16,665 nt of DNA, taken from the UHGV virus genome UHGV-0077406; one strand, written 5' to 3'. The notes under the pieces are model-generated. The model was not told the origin of the DNA, searched no databases, and worked only from the letters and a program-made list of their open reading frames with translations. Below, in pieces: positions 2,263 through 15,667 of this stretch. The DNA is from a virus. Every line of letters begins with the position of its first letter. Position 1 is the first letter of the stretch. The position numbers and the translations under genes were made by a program.

Positions 2263-2712
2263 TTACTTAACCAATGATGCTGCATATTCGATAAGGTAAA
2301 GCTTTGGGGCCAGCCAAATTTTTAACCAAGTCATATTGGTTACTACACCAATAATAAAAATCCCCCACAGAGTCAAAACTCCAACCAATGGCATGATAAG
2401 AAGATTAATATCACCTTTGCTATCCCAAACCATTGTCGGCCTGTATTTGGGATTTCCTTTCTCCCATGAATATCCTTCATCACCGATTTTACCTGTCTCA
2501 ACTCTTTGGCACTGCTTCTTCATAAACCAGAAAACCAGTGGGATTGTTAGAATGGCCATTAATGTTTTAATCAGACTGTCAACCATATTCCATAGCAGCA
2601 ACTGATGAACAACATCAGGAATCTGTGCCTGGCTAAATGAAACAGCCGCGTCTATTCCATTACTGGCTTTTTGCAGTAGTTCTACGAGAATCTTGTTTGC
2701 TTGTTCTTCCAT
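2263..2712 (-). CDS. Small inner-membrane protein with two predicted TM helices; possible superinfection-exclusion protein (SieB-like)
   Basis: 149-aa ORF with two hydrophobic segments ('LMAILTIPLVFWFM', 'LLIMPLVGVLTLWGIFIIGVV'); occupies the sieB position of the lambda pL operon between N and cIII; own terminator downstream. Function inferred from position. Confidence 0.45.
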   Translation of the reverse strand: MEEQANKILVELLQKASNGIDAAVSFSQAQIPDVVHQLLLWNMVDSLIKTLMAILTIPLVFWFMKKQCQRVETGKIGDEGYSWEKGNPKYRPTMVWDSKGDINLLIMPLVGVLTLWGIFIIGVVTNMTWLKIWLAPKLYLIEYAASLVK

Positions 2713-2996: not shown

Positions 2997-3380
2997 TCAC
3001 CTCGCCGTCAGTTGTTTTGATTTCCGGTAGCCTGCCGCGTAAATGGCTACGTTTGGAAGACATACACCAGTTTCTGGTTGCCTATGCCCAAACTCATTCG
3101 CGTACACAATGGCCGCTCTCTCCAGATTGCGTCTGTATTCTTTCTGTTGCCAGATCACGTCCTGTGCCATGAACTTAATTGGCTTAGCGTCTTCTATGCG
3201 CTCAGGCGTTTCGTGTTTACCTTTAGCCTGAATCTGTGCCAGACTGAGGGTAGGGCGGTGTAATACTTCTGAACTTATTGCTTCTTCGCGGGCCAGCACG
3301 CCGTTAGCTAATGCCTTTGCCTTTAAACGCTCACGACGACGAGAACGTGAATTGCCTTTGAACTGAGTTCTGCGTGTCAT
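2997..3380 (-). CDS. N: N-family transcription antiterminator (non-lambda specificity)
   Basis: First gene downstream of pL/nutL; AGGAGG RBS; N-terminal arginine-rich motif 'TRRTQFKGNSRSRRRERLKAKA'; 127 aa. Sequence differs from lambda N, so this gene lies outside the lambda-derived immunity segment. Confidence 0.7.
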   Translation of the reverse strand: MTRRTQFKGNSRSRRRERLKAKALANGVLAREEAISSEVLHRPTLSLAQIQAKGKHETPERIEDAKPIKFMAQDVIWQQKEYRRNLERAAIVYANEFGHRQPETGVCLPNVAIYAAGYRKSKQLTAR

Positions 3381-3545
3381 ATAGACCTCCTGATGAACTT
3401 TGGTGGTGTGGTAGGTGGGAGACCCATTTCGACCTGTTTCGGCCTACTTCAATTCGGCAATAGTCCCGCAGGCCTCGCCGCTTTACGTGCGACATATTCC
3501 CGTCCATGAACCCTTCACCACACCCCAAAGTTCACTTTGGTTATT

Positions 3546-3560
3546 GCGCTTTGTCAGCGC
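3546..3560 (-). promoter_or_regulatory. nutL boxB hairpin (P22-type GCGCUGACAAAGCGC)
   Basis: Minus-strand transcript reads GCGCTGACAAAGCGC, a 5-bp stem with GACAA loop, in the pL leader upstream of N; the same loop type recurs at nutR. Confidence 0.55.
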
Positions 3561-3628
3561 CGTAGATTCATATTCGAATCGTTGTATATTCACCGCCCTG
3601 GTGAGTAGTGCGTCCTGCTGATGTGTTT

Positions 3629-3691
3629 AGTATCACCGCCAGTGGTATTTATGTCAACACCGCTAGAGATAATTAATCACCGCAGATGGTT
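3629..3691 (-). promoter_or_regulatory. pL promoter with operators OL1 (3631-3647), OL2 (3655-3671), OL3 (3675-3691)
   Basis: Lambda operator sequences read directly: TATCACCGCCAGTGGTA, CAACACCGCTAGAGATA, AATCACCGCAGATGGTT. On the minus strand, -35 TTGACA (3652-3657) and -10 GATACT (3629-3634) are spaced as in lambda pL. Confidence 0.85.
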
Positions 3692-3833
3692 ATCTGTATG
3701 TTTTTTATATGAATTTATTTTTTGCAGGGGGCATTGTTTGGTAGGTGAGAGATCTGAATTGCTATGTTTAGTGAGTTGTATCTATTAATTTTCAAATAAA
3801 TACAATTGGTTATGTGTTTTTTTTGGGGGGGTA

Positions 3834-3862
3834 GGCAAAGAAAACCCGGCTCGGTGGCCGGG
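3834..3862 (-). terminator. Rho-independent terminator ending the cI-distal cassette
   Basis: Stem CCCGGC/GCCGGG (6 bp, 6-nt loop) followed on the minus strand by TTTTCTTTG, starting 8 nt after the stop of the 310-aa gene. Confidence 0.6.
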
Positions 3863-3869
3863 TGAGATA

Positions 3870-4802
3870 TTAAAGAACCGATTTAACAAGATGGTTTTTA
3901 CGGTACAGACCTATGCGATCATTGTGAATCTCAGTAGTCTCCACTAAAAGAGAAACAATCTGTCCGACCTTGTGTTTTTTTTGTATTAAATCTAGCATTT
4001 CAATCGGATAGGAAGCCTTTAAATGTTCACCACCAACATCAAGCTCCAGCTTCCCATATTTGGATAGAACGACCAGTTCGCCTGTAACCGTTTCAGTAAT
4101 GGGAGGGGATGAAATGGTTGATGTAAGTCTACTCACCAAGTACTTAATTTTATTGGAGTCAATAGTTGCCACCTTGGTGCCATTACTAAATGGACCGGTC
4201 CAACTTGCATCAAATGTTAAGTTGTGTTTATCGCATTCCTCTACGATTCTCTTAAGGCTTACAGTGGAATTGTATCCAATTTCAGCGACGTGATTCATGA
4301 AGTTGTTGTCGTCATCGCTTAACAACAAATCGAATATGCCTTTTACAGCCTTGCTGGGTACTGTTTCTACTAATTCTGCTATTCCTGTAGAGAAGGTGAC
4401 GCCCAATTTTGTAGACCCAGGGGATAAATCAGCCAGCCTGAGGTTTAAGGAGCTTTTCACGTCGTAGGGAACTTTTTTTGAGTCCTTGCCTGAGGCAATT
4501 TTGTGTGTTGCTCTTTGTATTAGCGCTGCAAGATTTGTTGAAATAGCCCCAAGCAGCTCTAAAGGAATAGAGCCAAAGTCAACCTCAGAGCCTTTCAGCC
4601 GCAGCTCAAAAAAATCGATAAGTGGGTGCCGACTATCTTGCTTTAATTTTTCGGCCTTCAAATCGCTCAGATGAGAATCCATGGAGCGATAAAGAAGCAT
4701 GTCAGCAAAGGACCTGGTTTTGTTTTGCTTCATTGCATCGACTTCTTTTTGAATGAAATCAATGCGTTTATCGCAATTTTTAAACATTGATTTATCATTC
4801 AT
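3870..4802 (-). CDS. Hypothetical 310-aa protein; second gene of the two-gene cassette in the rexAB-equivalent slot (candidate effector or sensor)
   Basis: Long AT-rich ORF; start at 4802 overlaps the stop of the upstream gene as ATGA; no TM segments and no catalytic motif I can recognise; unrelated to RexA or RexB as I recall them. Confidence 0.6.
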   Translation of the reverse strand: MNDKSMFKNCDKRIDFIQKEVDAMKQNKTRSFADMLLYRSMDSHLSDLKAEKLKQDSRHPLIDFFELRLKGSEVDFGSIPLELLGAISTNLAALIQRATHKIASGKDSKKVPYDVKSSLNLRLADLSPGSTKLGVTFSTGIAELVETVPSKAVKGIFDLLLSDDDNNFMNHVAEIGYNSTVSLKRIVEECDKHNLTFDASWTGPFSNGTKVATIDSNKIKYLVSRLTSTISSPPITETVTGELVVLSKYGKLELDVGGEHLKASYPIEMLDLIQKKHKVGQIVSLLVETTEIHNDRIGLYRKNHLVKSVL

Positions 4803-5278
4803 AAAAAAATCCTCACTAACCCTTTCGGGTTTTCACTGCGATCAAAACCAAACCAACCGCGCCAGTAGCTACGCCAGTACTCATAATCATAGTTAGGGTC
4901 ATCTAAATTCTTCATGAGTAGTAGGACATCAATTTTGTAGTTTTGTTTGATGTAGTTTCGGTCAAGCAAATTATCGACGCGGCCCCGAAGCATGACAGGT
5001 ATTGAGTTTATATTGCTATAGTCACATACCAACAAAATATCAATATCATCAGGCTCTGGTTTAGACGTGGTGTATGAACCATCAACCCATATTTCTGTAA
5101 AACAGCCATATTGAGCAGATAATTCTCGAATAGATTCGAGTAGCTGTATAAAATTACAGTATAGCATGCCTCGCCTGGATGATGAAGGAAAGCAATCGAC
5201 ACAATACGATTTTAATCCAGCTTCATCCATGTCATGGAACCCTGGCTCAAACAGGGGTGGGTAATTAATTTTATCCAT
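4799..5278 (-). CDS. Minimal pol-beta-superfamily nucleotidyltransferase (MNT/SMODS-like), 159 aa; first gene of the cassette
   Basis: Signature 'VDGSYTTSKPEPDDIDILLV' matches the hG[GS]-x9-Dh[DE]h NTase motif, with a possible third acidic residue in 'LLLMKNLDD'; Cys-rich N-terminus; co-oriented with cI and 149 nt downstream of its stop. Confidence 0.6.
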   Translation of the reverse strand: MDKINYPPLFEPGFHDMDEAGLKSYCVDCFPSSSRRGMLYCNFIQLLESIRELSAQYGCFTEIWVDGSYTTSKPEPDDIDILLVCDYSNINSIPVMLRGRVDNLLDRNYIKQNYKIDVLLLMKNLDDPNYDYEYWRSYWRGWFGFDRSENPKGLVRIFL

Positions 5279-5427
5279 AAAAAACCTTGCTATACATTTG
5301 TTTTTTTTATTAAAAATCTAACCACCGAAATGGTGACGGCAAGATGTTACATGGGGTTACAATCAGCCAATACACCGCATTAAATAATTTTTTCACCAGC
5401 TATGCGCCGACCAGAACACCTTGCCCA

Positions 5428-6144
<717 letters not shown>

Positions 6145-6151
6145 TTAAATC

Positions 6152-6217
6152 TATCACCGCAAGGGATAAACTTCTAACACCGTGCGTGTTGACTATTTTA
6201 CCTCTAGCGGTGATAAT
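6152..6217 (+). promoter_or_regulatory. OR3 (6152-6168), OR2 (6175-6191), OR1 (6199-6215) with pR (-35 TTGACT 6189-6194, -10 GATAAT 6212-6217) and divergent pRM
   Basis: Lambda operator sequences read directly: TATCACCGCAAGGGATA, TAACACCGTGCGTGTTG, TACCTCTAGCGGTGATA (one mismatch to lambda OR1); promoter hexamers at lambda-like spacing. Confidence 0.9.
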
Positions 6218-6241
6218 GATTGCCTGTACTAAGGAGGTTGT

Positions 6242-6442
6242 ATGGAACAACGCATAACCCTGAAAGATTATGCAATACGCTTTGGGCAAACCAAGACGGC
6301 TAAAGATCTCGGCGTATATCAAAGCGCGATTAACAAGGCCATTCATGCAGGCCGAAAGATTTTTTTAACTATAAACGCTGATGGAAGCGTTTATGCGGAA
6401 GAAATAAAGCCCTTCCCAAGTAACAAAAAAACAACTGCATAA
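6242..6442 (+). CDS. cro: Cro repressor
   Basis: 66-aa product '[66 protein letters not shown]' is near-identical to lambda Cro; AAGGAGG RBS. Confidence 0.95.
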
Positions 6443-6450
6443 GTAACACC

Positions 6451-6514
6451 GCTCTTTTCACAATGGACATTCGTCCTACGTCGCTGACAAAGCGAGCCCC
6501 AAGATATCTGACCA
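6451..6514 (+). promoter_or_regulatory. nutR: boxA-like CGCTCTTTT (6451-6459) and boxB hairpin TCGCTGACAAAGCGA (6500-6514)
   Basis: Read directly between cro and cII; boxB is a 5-bp stem with the same GACAA loop as nutL. Confidence 0.6.
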
Positions 6515-6579
6515 ACTAAGGCCATATGCGTTTCCACGCATACCTTTCAACTAACTATTCACTATTGGAAAATTAACAA

Positions 6580-6876
6580 ATGACACAAGCAAGTTACAGC
6601 AAGCCAACACAGCGAGAAATTGATCGCGCAGAAACAGATTTACTCATCAACCTGTCAACGCTTACCCAGCGCGGTCTGGCAAAGATGATTGGCTGTCATG
6701 AATCGAAGATAAGCAGAACGGACTGGAGATTTATTGCTTCGGTCTTGTGTGCTTTTGGAATGGCATCAGACATCAGTCCGATTAGCAGGGCTTTTAAGTA
6801 TGCGCTTGATGAAATCACAAAGAAAAAATCCCCGGCTGCCACCGAGGATTTTAAGCAAATTGATATGCAATTCTGA
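6580..6876 (+). CDS. cII: CII-family transcriptional activator (divergent from lambda CII)
   Basis: Position after cro/nutR; C-terminus '[18 protein letters not shown]' parallels lambda CII 'KKRPAATERSEQIQMEF'. TTGC-N6-TTGC (CII site of a leftward pRE) lies on the opposite strand at 6589-6602, overlapping the start of the gene as in lambda. Confidence 0.7.
6819..6847 (-). terminator. Putative oop-like antisense terminator overlapping the 3' end of cII
   Basis: On the minus strand: stem CCTCGG/CCGGGG (6 bp with one G-U pair), 6-nt loop, then ATTTTTTCTTT; same location and orientation as the lambda oop RNA terminator. Confidence 0.45.
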
Positions 6877-6908
6877 GGGAATTACTGGATCAATCCACAG
6901 GAGTAATT

Positions 6909-7055
6909 ATGACAAAACAACTCAGTCCTTACCAGGACAAAATTCACAAACACATACTACGTGATCGCTTCCTGTCCAGCTTCAAGCAGCCTGGTCGATT
7001 CCGGGCTGAGTTGGAAAAAGTGAAGCTGATGCAGAAGGAGAAAGGTCATGAGTAA
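6909..7055 (+). CDS. Small hypothetical protein (48 aa) between cII and O
   Basis: ATG at 6909 with AGGAGT RBS; product '[48 protein letters not shown]'; 3' end overlaps the O start codon. Below the ORF-track cutoff. Confidence 0.35.
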
Positions 7056-7908
7056 TCTTGCAACCGTAACACATTTAAGGCCTTCACAACGGCCTGTGGA
7101 GCGTCGTGTGGCAGAAGTTGAAGATGGTTATACCCGTCTTGCAAATGCCCTGTATGAAGAGCTTATCGGCGCAGATTTAACAAAAAATCAGAGTAAGGTT
7201 GCCCACGCCATATGCCGTAAAACATACGGATACGGTAAAAAGATGGATCGCATCTCTGATAGTCAGTTAGCTCAAATTACCAGGCTGCCAAGACAGAAGG
7301 TAAACAAGGCCAAGAATGAGCTTATCGCGATGAAGGTAATCCTTCGCGAAGGCCAGCAAATCGGGCCTAACAAGAACATCGAGGAATGGCAAATCGAAGG
7401 GTGTCACTACTCTGGTGATAATGTCACTGCATTGGTGACAAAAAGTGTCACCAAAACGGTGACAGCGCTGTCACCAAAACAGGGACACACAAAAGAAACT
7501 ATTACAAAAGAAAAAAGAAATAATAAAAACACTATGTCCGAAAGTGTTCGGACGGAGTGTGAAAAATCATCTGACCGTCACGAAGAAACCGACAAGGCAT
7601 TCGAGGAAATATTCTGGTGTGCAGGCATGCGGAAAGCCGGGAAGAAAAACGCAGCTTCGGCATTCAGAACACAGTTCAGGGAATGGCGTAAAACTACCAG
7701 GGGTACGGCAAGCGAGTTTGCCACGATGCTGGCAGAAGACATCGCATGCAGGAATGGTAAGCAGTTCGGATTCGACAGGTTGTTACCATCGAGCTACCTG
7801 AACGGTCAACGCTGGAACGACGAAAAGCCAGAAACCATTCAACCACAATCCAAACCATCATCCGCAATCACCGTATCGAAAACTGGCTACGTGTTTTTCG
7901 ACAGGTGA
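7048..7908 (+). CDS. O: Replication initiator O (lambda O-like N-terminal domain)
   Basis: N-terminal region ('[14 protein letters not shown]...[40 protein letters not shown]...GPNKNIEEW') parallels lambda O; GAAGGAG RBS; origin iterons lie inside the gene. Confidence 0.85.
7401..7530. repeat. Replication origin: four iteron-like TGTCAC(C)...GGTGACA repeats followed by an AT-rich tract
   Basis: Repeats around 7401-7420, 7421-7439, 7445-7465 and 7466-7489, each with internal dyad symmetry, then an A-rich stretch 7490-7530; same architecture and intragenic placement as lambda ori. Confidence 0.6.
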
Positions 7909-8015
7909 ACCATGAAATCAAAAATCAAATCGCTACTGGTCGCTGGTTATAACCACGGCTGGTTAAGTATTTCGTTTGTCGATTTCTGGTTTAAAAATCT
8001 CAATCTGAGGGAATC

Positions 8016-10922
8016 ATGACGCCAAGTGAACTTAGCGACCTGCTTTGGGCGCAGGTTGACAGGGTGGCTCCGCACCTGTTGCCAAACGGCAAGAAAGAGG
8101 GGCATGAGTGGGTTGCCGGTAACATCAACGGTGACAAGGGAAACAGCCTTAAGGTCAACCTTAGCGGCAAGAAAAAATGGGCTGATTTCGCCGAGGGAGA
8201 CGGCGGTGACATGCTTGATTTGTGGATGGCATGTCGTGGAATTAACCTGCATCAGGCTATGCAGGAAGCGAAAGCATTTCTCGGTATCAAGGATGACGAT
8301 CACCATTTCGATGCCAGACGTGAGAAAAAATTCTCCAGACCTGATCGCAAGAAAATCGCCCGCTACGTTACCAGAACAGAATCCCATCTTGAGTACCTGC
8401 AATCGCGTGGCATATCGCCAGAAATCGTAAAGCGCTACGAGGTTGTCAGCGGCAAGGTGTGGAATGGAGAGCGGGAACTGGATGCTCTGGTGATTCCGTA
8501 CAAACGCGATGGTGAGTTGTTGCAGGTCAAGCGAATCAGCACTGAGCGCCCGGACGGGAAGAAAGTCATTATGGCAGAAGGTGATTGCGAACCTTGCCTG
8601 TTCGGATGGCAGGCTCTGGACGCTGGCGTGAGGGCGGTTGTGCTTTGCGAAGGCGAAATTGATTGTATGAGCTATGCGCAATACGGCATCTCGGCGTTAT
8701 CCGTGCCGTTTGGTGGCGGGAAAGGCGCTAAGCAACAGTGGATTGAGTTTGAGTATCACAACCTCGACAGGTTTGAGGAAATATTCATCTCGATGGACGT
8801 TGATGATGTTGGTCGTGAAGCCGCAAGGGAAATCGCAAGCCGACTCGGTGAACATCGTTGCCGTCTTGTTACTCTGCCGTACAAAGACATCAACGAATGC
8901 CTGATGAACGGTGTTACCGAGGATGAAATCTGGCAGTACATCGGCACGGCATCCTACTTCGATCCTGAAGAACTCTACAGCGCGCGAGAGTTTTACCAGG
9001 ACACTATCAACGCTTTCTACGGCAAGCAGCAGTATCTGTTTAATCCACCGTGGGAATCTCTGGCAGATAAATTCCAGTTCCGTGAGGCAGAGTTGACGCT
9101 GGTCAATGGTGTGAACGGTCACGGAAAAGCCTGTCCACTTGATGAACCAATTCTGCTCGCTAATGGTGAATGGACTACTCACGGGGATGTAAAAATTGGC
9201 GATCAGGTGGCATCAGTAGACGGCAATCCGTCAACTGTCACCGGGATATTCCCGCAGGGTGTTAGAGATGTTTACCGAGTCACATTTGAAGATGGTCGTT
9301 ATGTTGATTGCGCAGGCGATCACCTATGGGAGGTCACTAGTCGTGGATTCACGAAAGGCGAGAAGCGCCGCGTGATAGACACCTTCGAGCTGAAACGGTT
9401 GAGTGAAACGAAGAGGCACAAAAATGGCGTCAGGATACCCGAAATAACTGGTGACTTTGGCGACCACTCAGAGCCATTAGCATGGGTTATCGGCTCCCTT
9501 CTCGGGGATGGTAGTCTTAGCAATGGGAGCGTGAAGTTTTCAAACGTCGAGCCATACATGATCGAGCGTATGAAGGCTGAACTGCCTGATTACAACTTTT
9601 CTGGAGATGGTAAGGACTGGCTGATATCAACGGCGCGTGGTCAGGTAAATCCACTCATGGAGACCCTGCGAGTTTATGGACTAATGGGGTGCACAGCAAA
9701 AAACAAATTCATCCCTCGTGTGTTTTTTTCCGCAAACAAATCAACGCGTATAGGAATGCTGTGTGGTCTGCTTGAAACGGATGGTTATGTCGAGAAGGAT
9801 GGAACGCTTGTTTTTTCCTCAGCAAGTGAAGAACTGCGTAATGGGGTTGTTCAACTGGTTAACTCACTCGGCGGTTCATGCCGGACGCGAGTTAAAACTG
9901 GCGTGACATACACATACAAGGGCGATAAGCGGCATGGGATGGATTCATATGAGGCAAGGATACGACTGACAAGGGAAATCAGGGAGGCCATCCGTTCACC
10001 ACGACTCAATGGCAGATTAACTGCGCATCGATTCGAGGGGTGTGGGGTATTCGTCAGGAATGTTGAAAAAATCGGCAATGCAGAATGCTTGTGTATCATG
10101 GTCGATCACCCTCGCCACCTGTATGTAACCAGAGGATATGTGGCAACGCATAACACCGAGGTTGTCGGGCATATGGCGCTTGAGGCAATGCGTCAGGGTG
10201 TGAAGACGTGCATCGCGTCACTTGAGCTGAAGCCTGGTATTCTCCTTAAGCGCCTTACCCGTCAGGCGACGTGCTGCAAGATGCCGCCAGTGCTGGAAAT
10301 TGACTCTGCATTTAAATTTTATGACGAAAGACTTTGGGTGTTTGGCCTGACCGGAACGGCGAAAGCCGACAGGCTGATCGAAATATTCGACTACGCTCGC
10401 CGCCGATACGGGATCCAGTTATTCATCATCGACAGCCTGATGAAATGTGGCATAGGCGACGATGACTATAACGGGCAGAAGGCGTTTGTTGACTCGATTT
10501 GCGACTTCAAAAACAAAACAAACTCCCACGTCATTCTCGTTACTCACTCGCGAAAAGGAGACAGCGAAGAAAAACCAACCGGGAAAATGGACGTAAAAGG
10601 CTCTGGAGCGATAACAGACCTGACAGACAACCTTTTCATCATCTGGCGTAACAAGGCTCGCGAGAGAGCGTTACAGAGAGTTCAGAGTGGTGAAAAGATG
10701 TCAGAGAAGGACGAACAGCTACTGGCATCTCCGGCATCTGTTTTGATGCTTGAAAAACAACGTAACGGCGAAGGTTGGGAAGGTGGTGTCCCGTTGTTCC
10801 TTGACGAGCAATCGCACCAGTTCCTGCAACTTGAATCAGGATCGCCATATAGCTACATCGCCAATATGCCGAAATCGGAATATGACGAGGCGTGGCGACA
10901 GGAAAACGTGACGGAGTATTAA
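8016..10922 (+). CDS. Bifunctional DNA primase / replicative helicase (Toprim primase plus RecA-fold helicase) interrupted by an in-frame intein
   Basis: Toprim motifs ('VVLCEGEIDCMS', 'SMDVDDVGREAA'); helicase Walker A 'LVNGVNGHGK' and Walker B-like 'QLFIIDSL'; 968 aa. A 341-aa intein sits in the P-loop. Occupies the position of lambda P. Confidence 0.85.
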   Translation: MTPSELSDLLWAQVDRVAPHLLPNGKKEGHEWVAGNINGDKGNSLKVNLSGKKKWADFAEGDGGDMLDLWMACRGINLHQAMQEAKAFLGIKDDDHHFDARREKKFSRPDRKKIARYVTRTESHLEYLQSRGISPEIVKRYEVVSGKVWNGERELDALVIPYKRDGELLQVKRISTERPDGKKVIMAEGDCEPCLFGWQALDAGVRAVVLCEGEIDCMSYAQYGISALSVPFGGGKGAKQQWIEFEYHNLDRFEEIFISMDVDDVGREAAREIASRLGEHRCRLVTLPYKDINECLMNGVTEDEIWQYIGTASYFDPEELYSAREFYQDTINAFYGKQQYLFNPPWESLADKFQFREAELTLVNGVNGHGKACPLDEPILLANGEWTTHGDVKIGDQVASVDGNPSTVTGIFPQGVRDVYRVTFEDGRYVDCAGDHLWEVTSRGFTKGEKRRVIDTFELKRLSETKRHKNGVRIPEITGDFGDHSEPLAWVIGSLLGDGSLSNGSVKFSNVEPYMIERMKAELPDYNFSGDGKDWLISTARGQVNPLMETLRVYGLMGCTAKNKFIPRVFFSANKSTRIGMLCGLLETDGYVEKDGTLVFSSASEELRNGVVQLVNSLGGSCRTRVKTGVTYTYKGDKRHGMDSYEARIRLTREIREAIRSPRLNGRLTAHRFEGCGVFVRNVEKIGNAECLCIMVDHPRHLYVTRGYVATHNTEVVGHMALEAMRQGVKTCIASLELKPGILLKRLTRQATCCKMPPVLEIDSAFKFYDERLWVFGLTGTAKADRLIEIFDYARRRYGIQLFIIDSLMKCGIGDDDYNGQKAFVDSICDFKNKTNSHVILVTHSRKGDSEEKPTGKMDVKGSGAITDLTDNLFIIWRNKARERALQRVQSGEKMSEKDEQLLASPASVLMLEKQRNGEGWEGGVPLFLDEQSHQFLQLESGSPYSYIANMPKSEYDEAWRQENVTEY
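9132..10154 (+). mobile_element. Intein with double-motif LAGLIDADG homing endonuclease, inserted in the helicase Walker A loop
   Basis: Begins with Cys ('CPLDEPILLANG'), ends 'VATHN' followed by Thr (+1 nucleophile); two LAGLIDADG blocks ('LAWVIGSLLGDGSL', 'IGMLCGLLETDGYV'); 1023 nt in frame. The N-terminal boundary could be one codon earlier (Ala at 9129), which would restore a canonical GHGKT. Confidence 0.75.
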
Positions 10923-11004
10923 ATGACAATCTACATCACTGAGCTAATAGCAGGGTTATCGTTACTAATGGTTCTTACTGTATATATTATTAAGTATATT
11001 CTTT

Positions 11005-11616
11005 ATGCGAATAAAAAAACCAATTGATCACGATGAGCTTCTGTCAACATTATCATATGACTCAGAAACAGGAATATTTAAATGGCTAAAAACAAATTCA
11101 GTAGTAAGAGTAAAAGGTAGTATTGCTGGAGGTGTTAGTGGTGGTTATATATGCATTAGCATAAATAATGTTTTGTATTATGCGCATAGGCTTGCTTGGT
11201 TCTATGTATACAAAAAATGGCCTCCTAAGTTTATTGATCATGTAAATGGGAACAGACTTGACAATAGGATTTCAAATCTAAGACTGGCAACAGAGGAGCA
11301 GAATGCAAGAAACATTGTAGGTAATAGGTTAAACACATCCGGTGCGATTGGAGTGTCTTGGGATAAGACAACTGGCAGGTGGAAGTCTTATGTTGGTTAT
11401 AAAAATAAGACAATATCGTTAGGGTATTTCGATAGCAAAGAAGATGCAGCATTCATAGCAGCACTAGCAAGAAAGAAACTATATGGAACTTATGCGAGTA
11501 AAGCACTTAATTGCGAGCATGAGCTTTTATCTCAATTTAATAATGATGAGGATAAACTTGCGGAATATCTTAAGGAAAAATCTAAAAGGACTCGAAAGCG
11601 TGTTAAAAAAAGATAA
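11005..11616 (+). CDS. HNH homing endonuclease with C-terminal AP2-type DNA-binding domain
   Basis: HNH core 'YYAHRLAWF...IDHVNGNRLDNRISNLRLATEEQNARN' and AP2-like 'GVSWDKTTGRWKSYVGYKNKTISLGYFDSKEDAAFI'; markedly AT-rich relative to flanks; no obvious SD sequence. Confidence 0.8.
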   Translation: MRIKKPIDHDELLSTLSYDSETGIFKWLKTNSVVRVKGSIAGGVSGGYICISINNVLYYAHRLAWFYVYKKWPPKFIDHVNGNRLDNRISNLRLATEEQNARNIVGNRLNTSGAIGVSWDKTTGRWKSYVGYKNKTISLGYFDSKEDAAFIAALARKKLYGTYASKALNCEHELLSQFNNDEDKLAEYLKEKSKRTRKRVKKR

Positions 11617-12526: not shown

Positions 12527-12941
12527 TTTCATTCTGCACGAAACCAATAAATCACAATTCTGGTTAGTTCTGAAACAAATCCTTTCTACCGGCAAGCGCT
12601 GGCGAATCAAAATATCTGAGTACCGTGAGAAGCGTACATTGTCACAAAACAATCTGATGTGGGTGTGGAATGCAGAAATAGCCGCGCAATTATCCGCTGT
12701 TTCTGGTGAAAGTTTTACACCGGAAGAGGTTCATGAGTGGCTGAAAGATATATATTGTCCGGCAAAAAGGGTGACGATTTTTAATATTACACGATGCGTT
12801 AAATCAACACGGCAGCTTGATATTGGAGATATGCACAAGTATCTGACCGATATTGACCAGTGGGCGCATCAGAAGGGATTACGACTAACTATTCCTGATA
12901 ATTGCGAGTACCGGGATCTAAAGGAGAGGCAAGTAGAGTGA
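12516..12941 (+). CDS. ninB: NinB-like recombination protein
   Basis: Contains the 'RTLSQNNLMWVW' motif comparable to lambda NinB 'RSLDQNRKLWAC'; similar size; position in the nin region. Confidence 0.55.
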   Translation: MMNDFILHETNKSQFWLVLKQILSTGKRWRIKISEYREKRTLSQNNLMWVWNAEIAAQLSAVSGESFTPEEVHEWLKDIYCPAKRVTIFNITRCVKSTRQLDIGDMHKYLTDIDQWAHQKGLRLTIPDNCEYRDLKERQVE

Positions 12942-13465
12942 CAATTAAATCAAATACGCCAGCACACGACAAGGACTGCTGGCAAACGCCGCTTTGGCTT
13001 TTTGATGCACTGGATATTGAGTTTGGATTCTGGCTGGATTCGGCAGCGAGCGACAAAAATGCTCTGTGTGCTCACTGGCTAACTGAGGCCGACGACGCGC
13101 TCAATTCTGAGTGGATAAGCCACGGTGCAATCTGGAATAACCCACCGTACAGCAATATCAGGCCGTGGGTGGAAAAAGCCGCTGAGCAGTGCATACAACA
13201 GCGACAGACGGTAGTTATGCTTGTGCCAGAGGATATGTCAGTCGGATGGTTCAGCAAGGCTCTGGAGAGTGTCGACGAAGTTCGCATTATCACTGATGGA
13301 CGGATTAATTTTATCGAACCATCGACAGGGCTGGAGAAGAAGGGAAACAGCAAAGGCTCCATGCTGCTGATTTGGCGACCGTTCATCAGTCCTCGACGGA
13401 TGTTTACTACCGTATCCAAAGCGGCATTGATGGCAATCGGGCAGGGCGTCAGGAGGGCGGCATGA
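12938..13465 (+). CDS. Phage DNA N6-adenine methyltransferase (Dam family, NPPY motif)
   Basis: '[28 protein letters not shown]' and 'IWNNPPYS' match the phage Dam family; GTG start at 12938 overlaps the NinB stop (GTGA). The 187-aa track ORF beginning at 12902 is an upstream in-frame extension. Confidence 0.75.
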
Positions 13466-14042: not shown

Positions 14043-14211
14043 CCCATCCCAATCCCTTCAATACCAGAAAGAAAGCGTCGAGCGAGCTTTAACGTGCGCT
14101 AACTGCGGTCAGAAGCTGCATGTGCTGGAAGTTCACGTGTGTGAGCTCTGCTGTGCAGAACTGATGAGCGATCCGAATAGCTCAATGTACGAGGAAGAAG
14201 ACGATGGCTAA
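14035..14211 (+). CDS. ninF: NinF-like protein (Cys-rich)
   Basis: Internal ATG at 14035; product '[58 protein letters not shown]' resembles lambda NinF as I recall it. Confidence 0.6.
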
Positions 14212-14815
14212 ACCAGCGCGAAGACGATGTAAAAACGATGAATGTCGGGAATGGTTTCACCCTGCATTCGCCAATCAGTGGTGGTGCTCTCCAGAGTGTG
14301 GAACCAAGATAGCACTCGAACGACGAAGCAAAGAACGCGAAAAAGCGGAAAAGGAAGTAGAGAAGAAACGACGACGAGAGGAGCAGAAACAGAAAGATAA
14401 ACTTAAGATTCGAAAACTCGCCTTAAAGCCCCGCAGTTACTGGATTAAACAAGCCCAACAAGCCGTAAACGCCTTCATCAGAGAAAGAGACCGCGACTTA
14501 CCATGTATCTCGTGCGGAACGCTCACGTCTGCTCAGTGGGATGCCGGGCATTACCGGACAACTGCTGCGGCACCTCAACTCCGATTTGATGAACGCAATA
14601 TTCACAAGCAATGCGTGGTGTGCAACCAGCATAAAAGCGGAAATCTCGTTCCGTATCGCGTCGAACTGATTAACCGGATCGGGCAGGAAGCAGTAGACGA
14701 AATCGAATCAAACCATAACCGCCATCGCTGGACTGTCGAAGAGTGCAAGGCGATCAAGGCAGAGTACCAACAGAAACTCAAAGACCTGCGAAATAGCAGA
14801 AGTGAGGCCGCATGA
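14204..14815 (+). CDS. ninG: NinG (Rap) recombination endonuclease
   Basis: Cys-rich N-terminus '[25 protein letters not shown]' and C-terminal 'CISCG...[14 protein letters not shown]' typical of NinG/Rap; overlaps neighbours by ATGA. Confidence 0.8.
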
Positions 14816-15018
14816 CGTTCTCAGTAAAAACCATTCCAGACATGCTCGTTGAAGCATACGGAAACCAGACAGAAGTAGCACGCAGACTGAAATGTAGTCG
14901 CGTTACGGTCAGAAAATACGTTGATGATAAAGACGGGAAAATGCACGCCATCGTCAACGACGTTCTCATGGTTCATCGCGGATGGAGTGAAAGAGATGCG
15001 CTATTACGAAAGAATTGA
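14812..15018 (+). CDS. ninH: NinH-like protein
   Basis: 68-aa ORF whose start overlaps the ninG stop; position and size as lambda NinH. Confidence 0.65.
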
Positions 15019-15667
15019 TGGCAGCAAATACCGAAATATTTGGGTAGTTGGCGATCTGCACGGATGCTACACGAACCTGATGAAAAAACTGGAGACGATA
15101 GGATTCGACACCAAAAAAGACCTGCTTATCTCGGTTGGCGATTTGGTCGATCGCGGTACAGAGAACGTCGAATGCCTGGAATTAATCACATTCCCCTGGT
15201 TCAGAGCTGTACGTGGAAACCATGAGCAAATGATGATTGATGGCTTATCAGAGCGCGGAAACGTCAATCACTGGATGCTTAATGGCGGTGGCTGGTTCTT
15301 TAATCTCGATTACGACAAAGAAATTCTGGCTAAAGCTCTTGCCCATAAAGCAGATGAACTTCCGTTAATCATCGAACTGGTGAGCAAAGATAAAAAATAT
15401 GTCATCTGCCACGCCGATTATCCTTGTGACGAATACGAGTTTGGAAAGCCAGTTGATCATCAGCAGGTAATCTGGAACCGAGAACGAATCAGCAACTCAC
15501 AAGACGGGATCGTGAAAGAAATTAAAGGCGCGGACACGTTCATCTTTGGTCATACGCCAGCAGTGAAACCGCTCAAATTTGCCAACCAGATGTATATCGA
15601 TACCGGCGCAGTGTTCTGCGGAAAGCTCACATTGATTCAGGTACAGGGAGAAGGCGCGTGGGCATAA
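14996..15667 (+). CDS. Ser/Thr protein phosphatase (lambda PPase / NinI)
   Basis: Internal ATG at 14996 with GGAGTGA RBS; metallophosphatase motifs 'GDLHG', 'GDLVDRG', 'GNHE'; near-identical to the lambda phosphatase over the stretch I can recall. Confidence 0.85.

Follow-up and report, generated by a model that had tools for sequence, protein, structure and literature searches.

The region between cI and N of lambdoid prophages is a known hotspot of mosaic diversity, where lambda has rexAB and BTP1 has bstA, and the genes located there share one of the most active lysogenic promoters (Owen et al., PMC8585504). This raises the question of what is encoded at this position in the virus genome UHGV-0077406, of which a stretch of 16,665 nucleotides (the window) was available, and what the products may do for the lysogen. 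An earlier note, made from the letters of this DNA alone, had pointed to two genes that take the place of rexB and rexA next to a lambda-type cI and had proposed a new lysogen-expressed anti-phage, abortive-infection or toxin–antitoxin (TA)-like system. From our analysis, the cassette emerges as an accessory ('moron') operon that occupies the slot between cI and OL/N in lambdoid prophages. It consists of gene A for a minimal nucleotidyltransferase (NTase) of the pol-beta superfamily and gene B for a 310-residue protein. A role in defence, abortive infection or as a TA-like module upon expression in the lysogen remains the best hypothesis; the novelty claimed for the system did not stand, since the pair is already catalogued as the phage defence candidate PDC-M63.

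The anatomy of the locus agrees with the earlier description of two overlapping genes on the minus strand. Gene A (4799–5278, minus strand, 159 residues) and gene B (3870–4802, minus strand, 310 residues) share an ATGA stop/start overlap at 4799–4802 (TCAT on the plus strand) that points to translational coupling, and the GAGGA Shine–Dalgarno sequence of gene B sits within the 3′ end of gene A. Both are co-oriented with the gene for the 237-residue lambda-type repressor cI (5428–6141, minus strand), presumably the first gene of the operon, and a spacer of 149 bp (5279–5427, minus strand) extends from the cI stop to the start of A. On the left, the slot is flanked by the conserved lambda-type operators OL1–OL3 with pL (3631–3691, minus strand), while OR3–OR2–OR1 with the pRM/pR region (6152–6215), the presumed source of lysogenic cI-A-B transcription, lie beyond cI and are followed by the divergent cro gene (6242–6442, 66 residues). 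When compared with the annotated lambda operators, OL1, OR2 and OR3 are identical and OL2, OL3 and OR1 are each one base off, and a promoter scan found a pL-like TTGACA/GATACT promoter at 3657–3629 and a pR-like one at 6189–6217. Homology to lambda, as detected by blastn, covers 3590–3863 (90%) and 5397–6456 (96.9%, cI and cro, both near-identical) with nothing in between. The segment 3864–5396 (1533 bp), delimited by blastn against lambda and phage mEpX1 as the mobile cassette including its 5′ spacer, does not align with rexB-rexA and replaces exactly lambda 35826–37195 (1370 bp), that is, rexB, rexA and their spacers.

Two details of the original description had to be revised. A terminator at 3834–3862 had been assigned to the cassette itself. 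The actual hairpin lies at 3844–3863 (minus strand) and has a 7-bp stem with six GC pairs followed by a T-run. It shares the stem CCCGGC/GCCGGG with lambda tIMM, from which it differs in the loop, and it lies within the stretch of homology to lambda that extends to position 3863; it is therefore the terminator of the slot, part of the conserved flank, and ruled out as an element of the cassette. Terminators of the tIMM type are also conserved in many Shiga toxin (Stx) phages. The label 'AT-rich' holds insofar as the G+C content of the cassette (0.396) is below that of the window (0.453), but the deviation is modest and the value is close to the 0.404 of the lambda rexAB segment.

Read-through from pRM/pRE into A and B appears plausible, since the spacer contains no sigma-70 promoter at the scan threshold (8 of 12 matching positions at best, by eye), holds only a weak hairpin, has an unremarkable fold and is without a match in Rfam. 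A convincing terminator between cI and gene A was not found. The possibility that the spacer is a structured RNA or riboswitch was rejected, as it folds no better than its shuffled versions (z = −0.33) and has no Rfam match. Its hairpin at 5321–5340 (minus strand), which is followed by a T/A-rich run, is identical in mEpX1 and likewise folds no better than chance; it could dampen read-through or have a role in cis comparable to that of aba in BstA.

Is the cassette known? As an object in databases it is; as a system it has no characterized relative. A scan with PADLOC, which the earlier note had recommended, matched both proteins to PDC-M63: protein A to PDC-M63A (PDLC04744, E = 1.8e-41, residues 1–158 against 1–148 of the 152 profile positions) and protein B to PDC-M63B (best model PDLC04749, E = 7.5e-45, plus five further M63B models). 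The architecture of PDC-M63 is likewise present, with B adjacent to A and a 4-nt overlap. Protein A also belongs to Pfam family DUF6932 (PF22014; E = 1.7e-24, 87.3 bits against a cut-off of 27, residues 8–157), and A and B match PHROGs 9194 and 6603, respectively, families without an assigned function. The DNA is 99.6% identical to phage mEpX1 over 3834–5454, where the genes are annotated as hypothetical (XSB41150/XSB41149), and the proteins are identical to RefSeq entries WP_016063144 (A) and WP_016063143 (B). Order and family models thus agree with PDC-M63, DUF6932 and mEpX1 without any difference at the sequence level; what sets this copy apart from other PDC-M63 copies is its junction to a lambda-type cI. 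B has no match in Pfam, neither protein has one in NCBIfam, and no TA family of Pfam, NCBIfam or PADLOC was matched by A or B. The PDC systems are 145 'phage defence candidates' derived from genes embedded in BREX (bacteriophage exclusion), DISARM (defence island system associated with restriction–modification) or type I restriction–modification (RM) systems, and entered PADLOC explicitly as untested predictions by 'guilt by embedding' (Payne et al., 10.1101/2024.01.29.577857). PDC-M63 corresponds to cassette CAS_00189 of these authors, and an independent genomic predictor has in this way arrived at the same defence idea. No functional study turned up in the literature for DUF6932, the RefSeq accessions, mEp phages or systems combining an NTase with an OB (oligonucleotide/oligosaccharide-binding) fold. 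The verdict 'uncharacterised' is accordingly right in that no mechanism or phenotype has been published, and wrong in that PADLOC, Pfam, PHROGs and mEpX1 already contain the pair.

Is the position in the repressor slot a peculiarity of one genome? In mEpX1, A and B lie between N/Nun and a different cI gene of 212 codons, and the match to our cassette extends for 27 bp into the cI gene from its 3′ end; the spacer is identical and travels with the cassette. From these boundaries it follows that the cassette moves between conserved junctions, namely the tIMM terminator and, opposite to it, the 3′ end of cI together with 31 bp of sequence downstream. At an identity of at least 99%, it occurs in 18 of 5426 complete Escherichia coli genomes, in two of them joined to a lambda-type cI. 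E. coli AMSCJX03 carries it (99.6% identical) downstream of a 215-residue LexA-family repressor. In Providencia, the genes for an S24 repressor and for N enclose a pair whose B is 46% identical. In the Providencia prophage (locus L005), a DUF3024 gene and a 44-residue open reading frame (ORF) are located between repressor and A-B (6969–7466), such that the slot can stack several morons.

We then linked the A family with its genetic environment on a larger scale, which revealed A-B beside many repressor types. When IMG/VR was scanned with the alignment of A, 109 loci were retrieved, of which 80 were kept. A homologue of B directly follows A in 79 of these (the exception ends at the contig edge), and overlap or near-abutment of the two genes is found in most homologous loci. 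The ORF directly upstream of A, available in 78 cases, matches HTH_3 (46), Peptidase_S24 (40) and/or Phage_CI_repr (10). Clustering at 60% identity divides these 78 ORFs into 45 groups, and about 20 of the groups are accounted for by ORFs of repressor length from enterobacterial loci. Even among distant phage loci (A 29–39% identical), a CI-type helix-turn-helix protein is encoded directly upstream in four of ten. The counts for A-B adjacency and the usual viral position directly downstream of diverse prophage repressors are new in this analysis, as are the assignment of A to a divergent MNT-like branch, the OB fold of B and the B-type hairpin on HsdR described below.

The cassette therewith resembles lambda RexAB in slot (cI–OL), orientation, tIMM terminator, number of genes and G+C content, but differs from it by the lack of any sequence homology (no alignment with lambda 35826–37195, no PADLOC RexAB match) and by a different predicted chemistry. 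RexB is a polytopic membrane protein, and the cassette has no membrane counterpart of it. With BstA from prophage BTP1 it has in common the conserved position downstream of the repressor and, presumably, the common promoter (PMC8585504), while BstA is a single unrelated protein and PADLOC found no BstA match in the cassette.

What kind of protein is A? The pol-beta NTase signature noticed at the outset is indeed present, in the form GS-x9-DxD with G67, S68, D78 and D80. Of 149 aligned family members, all but one cover the active site. G67, S68 and D78 show no variation, D80 occurs in 147 of 148 sequences, and position 117, the site of the third acidic residue, holds aspartate in 122 and glutamate in 7 sequences. 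K152-G153 is present in 145 sequences, and a family-specific C-terminal motif, RSYWRGWFGF-x-R-x-E-x-PKG, is conserved as well. With G-S…D-x-D and a third acidic residue on an NTase fold, A has what defines a pol-beta NTase, and judging from this conservation it is almost certainly enzymatically active. Its predicted fold comes closest to those of MNT proteins (2rff, 8xeh, 7ae2, 1no5) and ANT enzymes, with HI0073, CdnB/CdnC and pol beta also among the matches; as the scores of the structural matches are low, the model places A in a divergent MNT-like branch without a close solved relative. Neither single-sequence nor profile searches of the Protein Data Bank (PDB) yielded a significant match; for A the palm of pol beta ranked first (profile, E = 0.2), and for B there was no hit. 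The profile and structure searches advised earlier thus identified A as an MNT-like NTase and a C-terminal OB fold in B by way of the models, whereas the PDB searches remained without significant match. A transmembrane helix is not predicted in A (Kyte–Doolittle maximum 1.25 over 19 residues).

For protein B the structural model is fair (pLDDT 82 for the best of five, the other four being lower). It predicts two long N-terminal helices (10–25 and 32–57) that form a helical hairpin (~10–57), a central alpha/beta domain and, at the C-terminus, an OB fold (~229–309), a barrel of five strands in which a helix lies between the third and the fourth. G129 and S130 are the only residues invariant across 66 diverse homologues and are part of an R-L-A-x4-G-S-[TS]-[KR]-L hairpin in the central domain; a few glycine, tryptophan, phenylalanine and acidic positions are nearly invariant. 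As far as the alignment tells, this is a conservation pattern unlike that of an enzyme. The absence of a transmembrane helix (maximum 1.38 by the same measure) and of a recognizable catalytic motif, as originally stated for B, was confirmed, and we regard B as a soluble protein. A Pfam scan of the 66 homologues found no recurrent domain, and a basic charge resembling that of single-stranded DNA-binding proteins was sought in the OB domain and not found (isoelectric point 6.8). Residues 62–146 show weak similarity (E = 3e-5) to the N-terminus of PDC-M32A, another uncharacterized PADLOC candidate, and may represent a shared domain.

An NTase paired with an OB-fold protein brings to mind a signalling system of the CBASS (cyclic-oligonucleotide-based anti-phage signalling) or Hailong type, in which A would make a nucleotide or oligonucleotide signal, constitutively or upon infection, and B would bind it via the OB fold and act as effector. 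OB folds commonly bind oligonucleotides, the active site of A is invariant, and CdnC and CdnB are among its weak structural matches. However, A with its 159 residues lacks the C-terminal domain of the cGAS/DncV-like nucleotidyltransferases (CD-NTases) and matches neither SMODS nor CD-NTase models in Pfam or PADLOC, and B contains no transmembrane helix, nuclease, phospholipase, TIR or other effector signature, its family-wide invariants being a glycine and a serine only. Hailong consists of the membrane ion-channel effector HalA and the NTase HalB; B has no transmembrane segment, and no Hailong structure was among the top matches of A. In addition, copies of A embedded in RM operons (see below) are paired with an HsdR protein that has no OB domain. 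We regard signalling of this type as very improbable.

The same two proteins can also be read as a TA or addiction module that stabilizes the prophage or a host region without a dedicated anti-phage role, with A as a MenT/AbiEii-type toxin neutralized by B, or with B as a toxin held in check by A as in HEPN-MNT (MntA-HepT, type VII TA). Two small overlapping genes in obligate pairing would fit, as would the patchy occurrence across phyla with resolvases, transposases and other TA genes among the neighbours. Like HEPN-MNT, the cassette has the gene for a minimal NTase first and coupled to that of its partner, and the fold of A is nearest to MNT. MntA poly-AMPylates its toxin, and the analogy suggests that A might control its partner by nucleotidylylation. 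On the other hand, B combines a helical hairpin with alpha/beta and OB domains, has no HEPN match in Pfam, and contains neither the Rx4-6H motif of HEPN RNases nor a DNA-binding antitoxin domain. AbiE (AbiEi/AbiEii) and MenAT, too, are defence-linked two-gene modules with a GS…DxD pol-beta NTase, as are CBASS with its CD-NTase and Hailong with HalB, but Pfam and PADLOC gave no match to them, A is about half the size of AbiEii/MenT (159 versus ~280 residues for DUF1814), and a WYL or helix-turn-helix antitoxin is missing; for CBASS, neither a SMODS cyclase match nor a membrane or enzymatic effector was found. That the pair could be deleted from E. coli NILS69, the lack of any TA family match, and its placement in cI operons across many immunity types, which better fits lysogenic conversion, make a pure TA function improbable in our eyes. 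Since at least one defining feature of each is absent, the cassette falls outside HEPN-MNT, AbiE/MenAT, CBASS, Hailong and RexAB. It comes nearest to two known kinds of element, the two-gene modules of an NTase plus partner and the defence morons found downstream of cI, and represents a distinct variant of each.

Revealing information on the relationship between A and its partner came from five Bacteroidota genomes (loci L142, L145, L149, L150 and L159, at approximately positions 3500–10000 of each locus) in which A occurs without B. Here, the solo A gene is located between a gene for a fused HsdM-HsdS protein (N6_Mtase + Methylase_S) and one for an 855-residue HsdR-like protein (ResIII + Helicase_C + EcoEI_R_C), and it overlaps or abuts the start of the latter in the same manner as A does with B. 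The first 60–90 residues of the HsdR-like proteins are homologous to the N-terminal hairpin of B: hmmsearch with the B profile gave E-values of 1e-9 to 1e-5 with matches starting from residue 1, and hhalign aligned B 6–94 with HsdR 3–88 at a probability of 90% (E = 1.7e-6). After the hairpin region follows the usual PD-(D/E)xK motif (PDIVLQD…AViENKL). The RM-embedded A copies keep GS, DxD and PKG, and most of the RSYWRGWFGF motif is gone. A search of a set of 5.8 billion proteins with the B-hairpin profile returned short fragments only and no new partner architectures. These loci place A physically inside a bona fide defence system, and an RM variant with a solo DUF6932 gene appears to be undescribed. 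The shared N-terminus suggests that the hairpin of B is a portable module by which A may bind to, or act on, the protein encoded downstream. Taken to its end, DUF6932 would be a new class of immune accessory NTases that dock on a portable hairpin of interchangeable partners (B or HsdR) and control them by nucleotidylylation. Such a generalization is unlikely at present; if it were true, the cassette would represent lysogen-expressed defence by a new mechanism and would be linked to a layer of restriction-enzyme regulation that has so far gone unnoticed.

How is the family distributed outside of phages? Scanning one genome per GTDB species yielded 72 loci in 100,044 genomes, which belong to Gamma-, Beta-, Alpha- and Deltaproteobacteria, Bacteroidota, Nitrospirae, Ignavibacteriae and Firmicutes and further to Verrucomicrobia, Planctomycetota, Chloroflexi, Acidobacteria and Parcubacteria. 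The A-B family is rare, patchy and evidently mobile. A gene for A was called in 68 of the loci, and 55 of these have a canonical B of ~310 residues after it; in a distant metagenomic pair (A 35% identical) the partner is B-like as well (hhalign probability 99.7%). Among 1.84 billion representatives the B family forms 266 clusters at 50% identity, nearly all with a length of 300–330 residues. One pair adjoins a type I RM system plus YoeB/YefM, which favours a link to defence, and another a gene for a large DUF4011/AAA_11/AAA_12/DUF3320 helicase; other pairs are found in ordinary chromosomal surroundings with no phage genes nearby.

Several observations weigh against a role in defence. The neighbours of 35 non-enterobacterial pairs (140 genes, two on either side) are heterogeneous and include housekeeping enzymes, resolvases and transposases. 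About 8% of these 140 genes are of defence type by our own reading of the PADLOC list, without a proper control (SoFic, PDC-S31, DrmD, PD-Lambda-5_B, NERD, ZacB and methyltransferases), so that the association with defence islands in non-enterobacterial genomes is modest. In the cassette itself, the weak terminator-like hairpin sits between cI and A. A distant pair on a mobile element is surrounded by Lar-like, RadC and methylase genes, an anti-restriction-like context. Finally, the sole functional test that we found in the literature was negative: when the prophage-borne PDC-M63AB was deleted from E. coli NILS69, infection by 10 virulent double-stranded DNA phages was unchanged (PMC12409345). 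This result speaks against a strong broad-spectrum defence. As for the breadth of protection to be expected from this slot, RexAB itself acts on a narrow set of phages only.

The anti-restriction-like context leads to a further explanation, according to which the pair benefits the phage in another way than by defending the lysogen, be it through control of induction or of the lysis–lysogeny decision, or as a counter-defence or anti-restriction factor that modifies, for example, HsdR. Its location directly downstream of repressors in most viral loci is compatible with this explanation, and the coupling of A to an HsdR with a B-type N-terminus would fit a restriction regulator. Yet, in the RM loci A belongs to the RM operon of the host and not to an invader, some pairs are chromosomal with no phage genes in the vicinity, and exactly this slot is known to house defence genes in the case of rexAB and bstA. 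We therefore assign a low probability to this explanation.

That A and B constitute a defence system is, in our assessment, slightly favoured over the opposite. The more specific proposal, a PDC-M63 member in the cI slot whose A-B complex is expressed in the lysogen and provides exclusion or abortive-infection protection against superinfecting phages, comes somewhat short of an even chance. It builds on gene anatomy, family membership, obligate pairing, slot, folds, active-site conservation and the shared N-terminal module, all established here. According to this proposal, cI, A and B would be expressed as one lysogenic transcript from pRM/pRE that ends at the tIMM-type terminator, and the translationally coupled products would form a complex via the N-terminal hairpin of B. 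A would then modify B, or else a ligand bound by the OB or central domain of B, through transfer of a nucleotide. The probable ligand of the OB fold is a nucleic acid or a protein, and the invariant Ser130 is, speculatively, a candidate nucleotide acceptor. Nucleotide transfer could keep B in an off state, or turn it on once the complex is disturbed by a superinfecting phage, and exclusion or abortive infection of that phage would be the outcome. Nucleotidylylation of the partner as the control step is the part borrowed from HEPN-MNT, and we consider it tentative and somewhat unlikely.

The remainder of the window holds a number of further features. The N antiterminator (2997–3380, minus strand; Pfam N_peptide, 3e-15) is not that of lambda and resembles P22/phage 21 at its C-terminus by eye; since N is not lambda's and lambda homology ends at ~3590, the immunity region is a mosaic. 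Downstream of N, a 149-residue protein (2263–2712, minus strand) without family match has hydrophobic stretches by eye and is a possible lysogenic-conversion or exclusion gene. On the plus strand, a 968-residue replication protein of the primase/helicase type (8016–10922; Toprim_2 + AAA_25) is apparently interrupted by an intein-like insert with Hom_end_hint (379–424) and LAGLIDADG_3 (579–632) domains, and it is followed by a 203-residue HNH_3 + AP2 gene (11005–11616, plus strand), probably an insertion of a free-standing homing endonuclease gene behind that of the replication protein. Around the HNH_3 + AP2 gene extends an island of low G+C content (~10800–11600, 0.36–0.37) with strong GC skew. 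An orphan DNA methyltransferase (12902–13465, plus strand; PADLOC oMTase, 6e-20) is encoded in the nin region, where NinG (14204–14815, plus strand) and a Metallophos Ser/Thr phosphatase similar to lambda PPase (14921–15667, plus strand) are ordinary residents.

What does the cassette mean for the biology of lambdoid prophages? After rexAB and bstA, it is a third, unrelated occupant of the cI-to-N slot, and it is found beside many repressors. As this slot shares a highly active lysogen promoter and already hosts rexAB and bstA, the cassette is a strong lead for prophage-encoded immunity. It is a well-defined and experimentally tractable candidate in a classic locus, now accompanied by a new structural and genomic clue. 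Should no phenotype emerge, the case would be a useful caution on candidates drawn from genomic context alone. If validated, a bare PADLOC candidate would become a defined system, and a first function would be available for DUF6932 and for the 310-residue B family that is without a Pfam model. Beyond that, the shared N-terminal module provides a testable link from a minimal nucleotidyltransferase to type I restriction enzymes.

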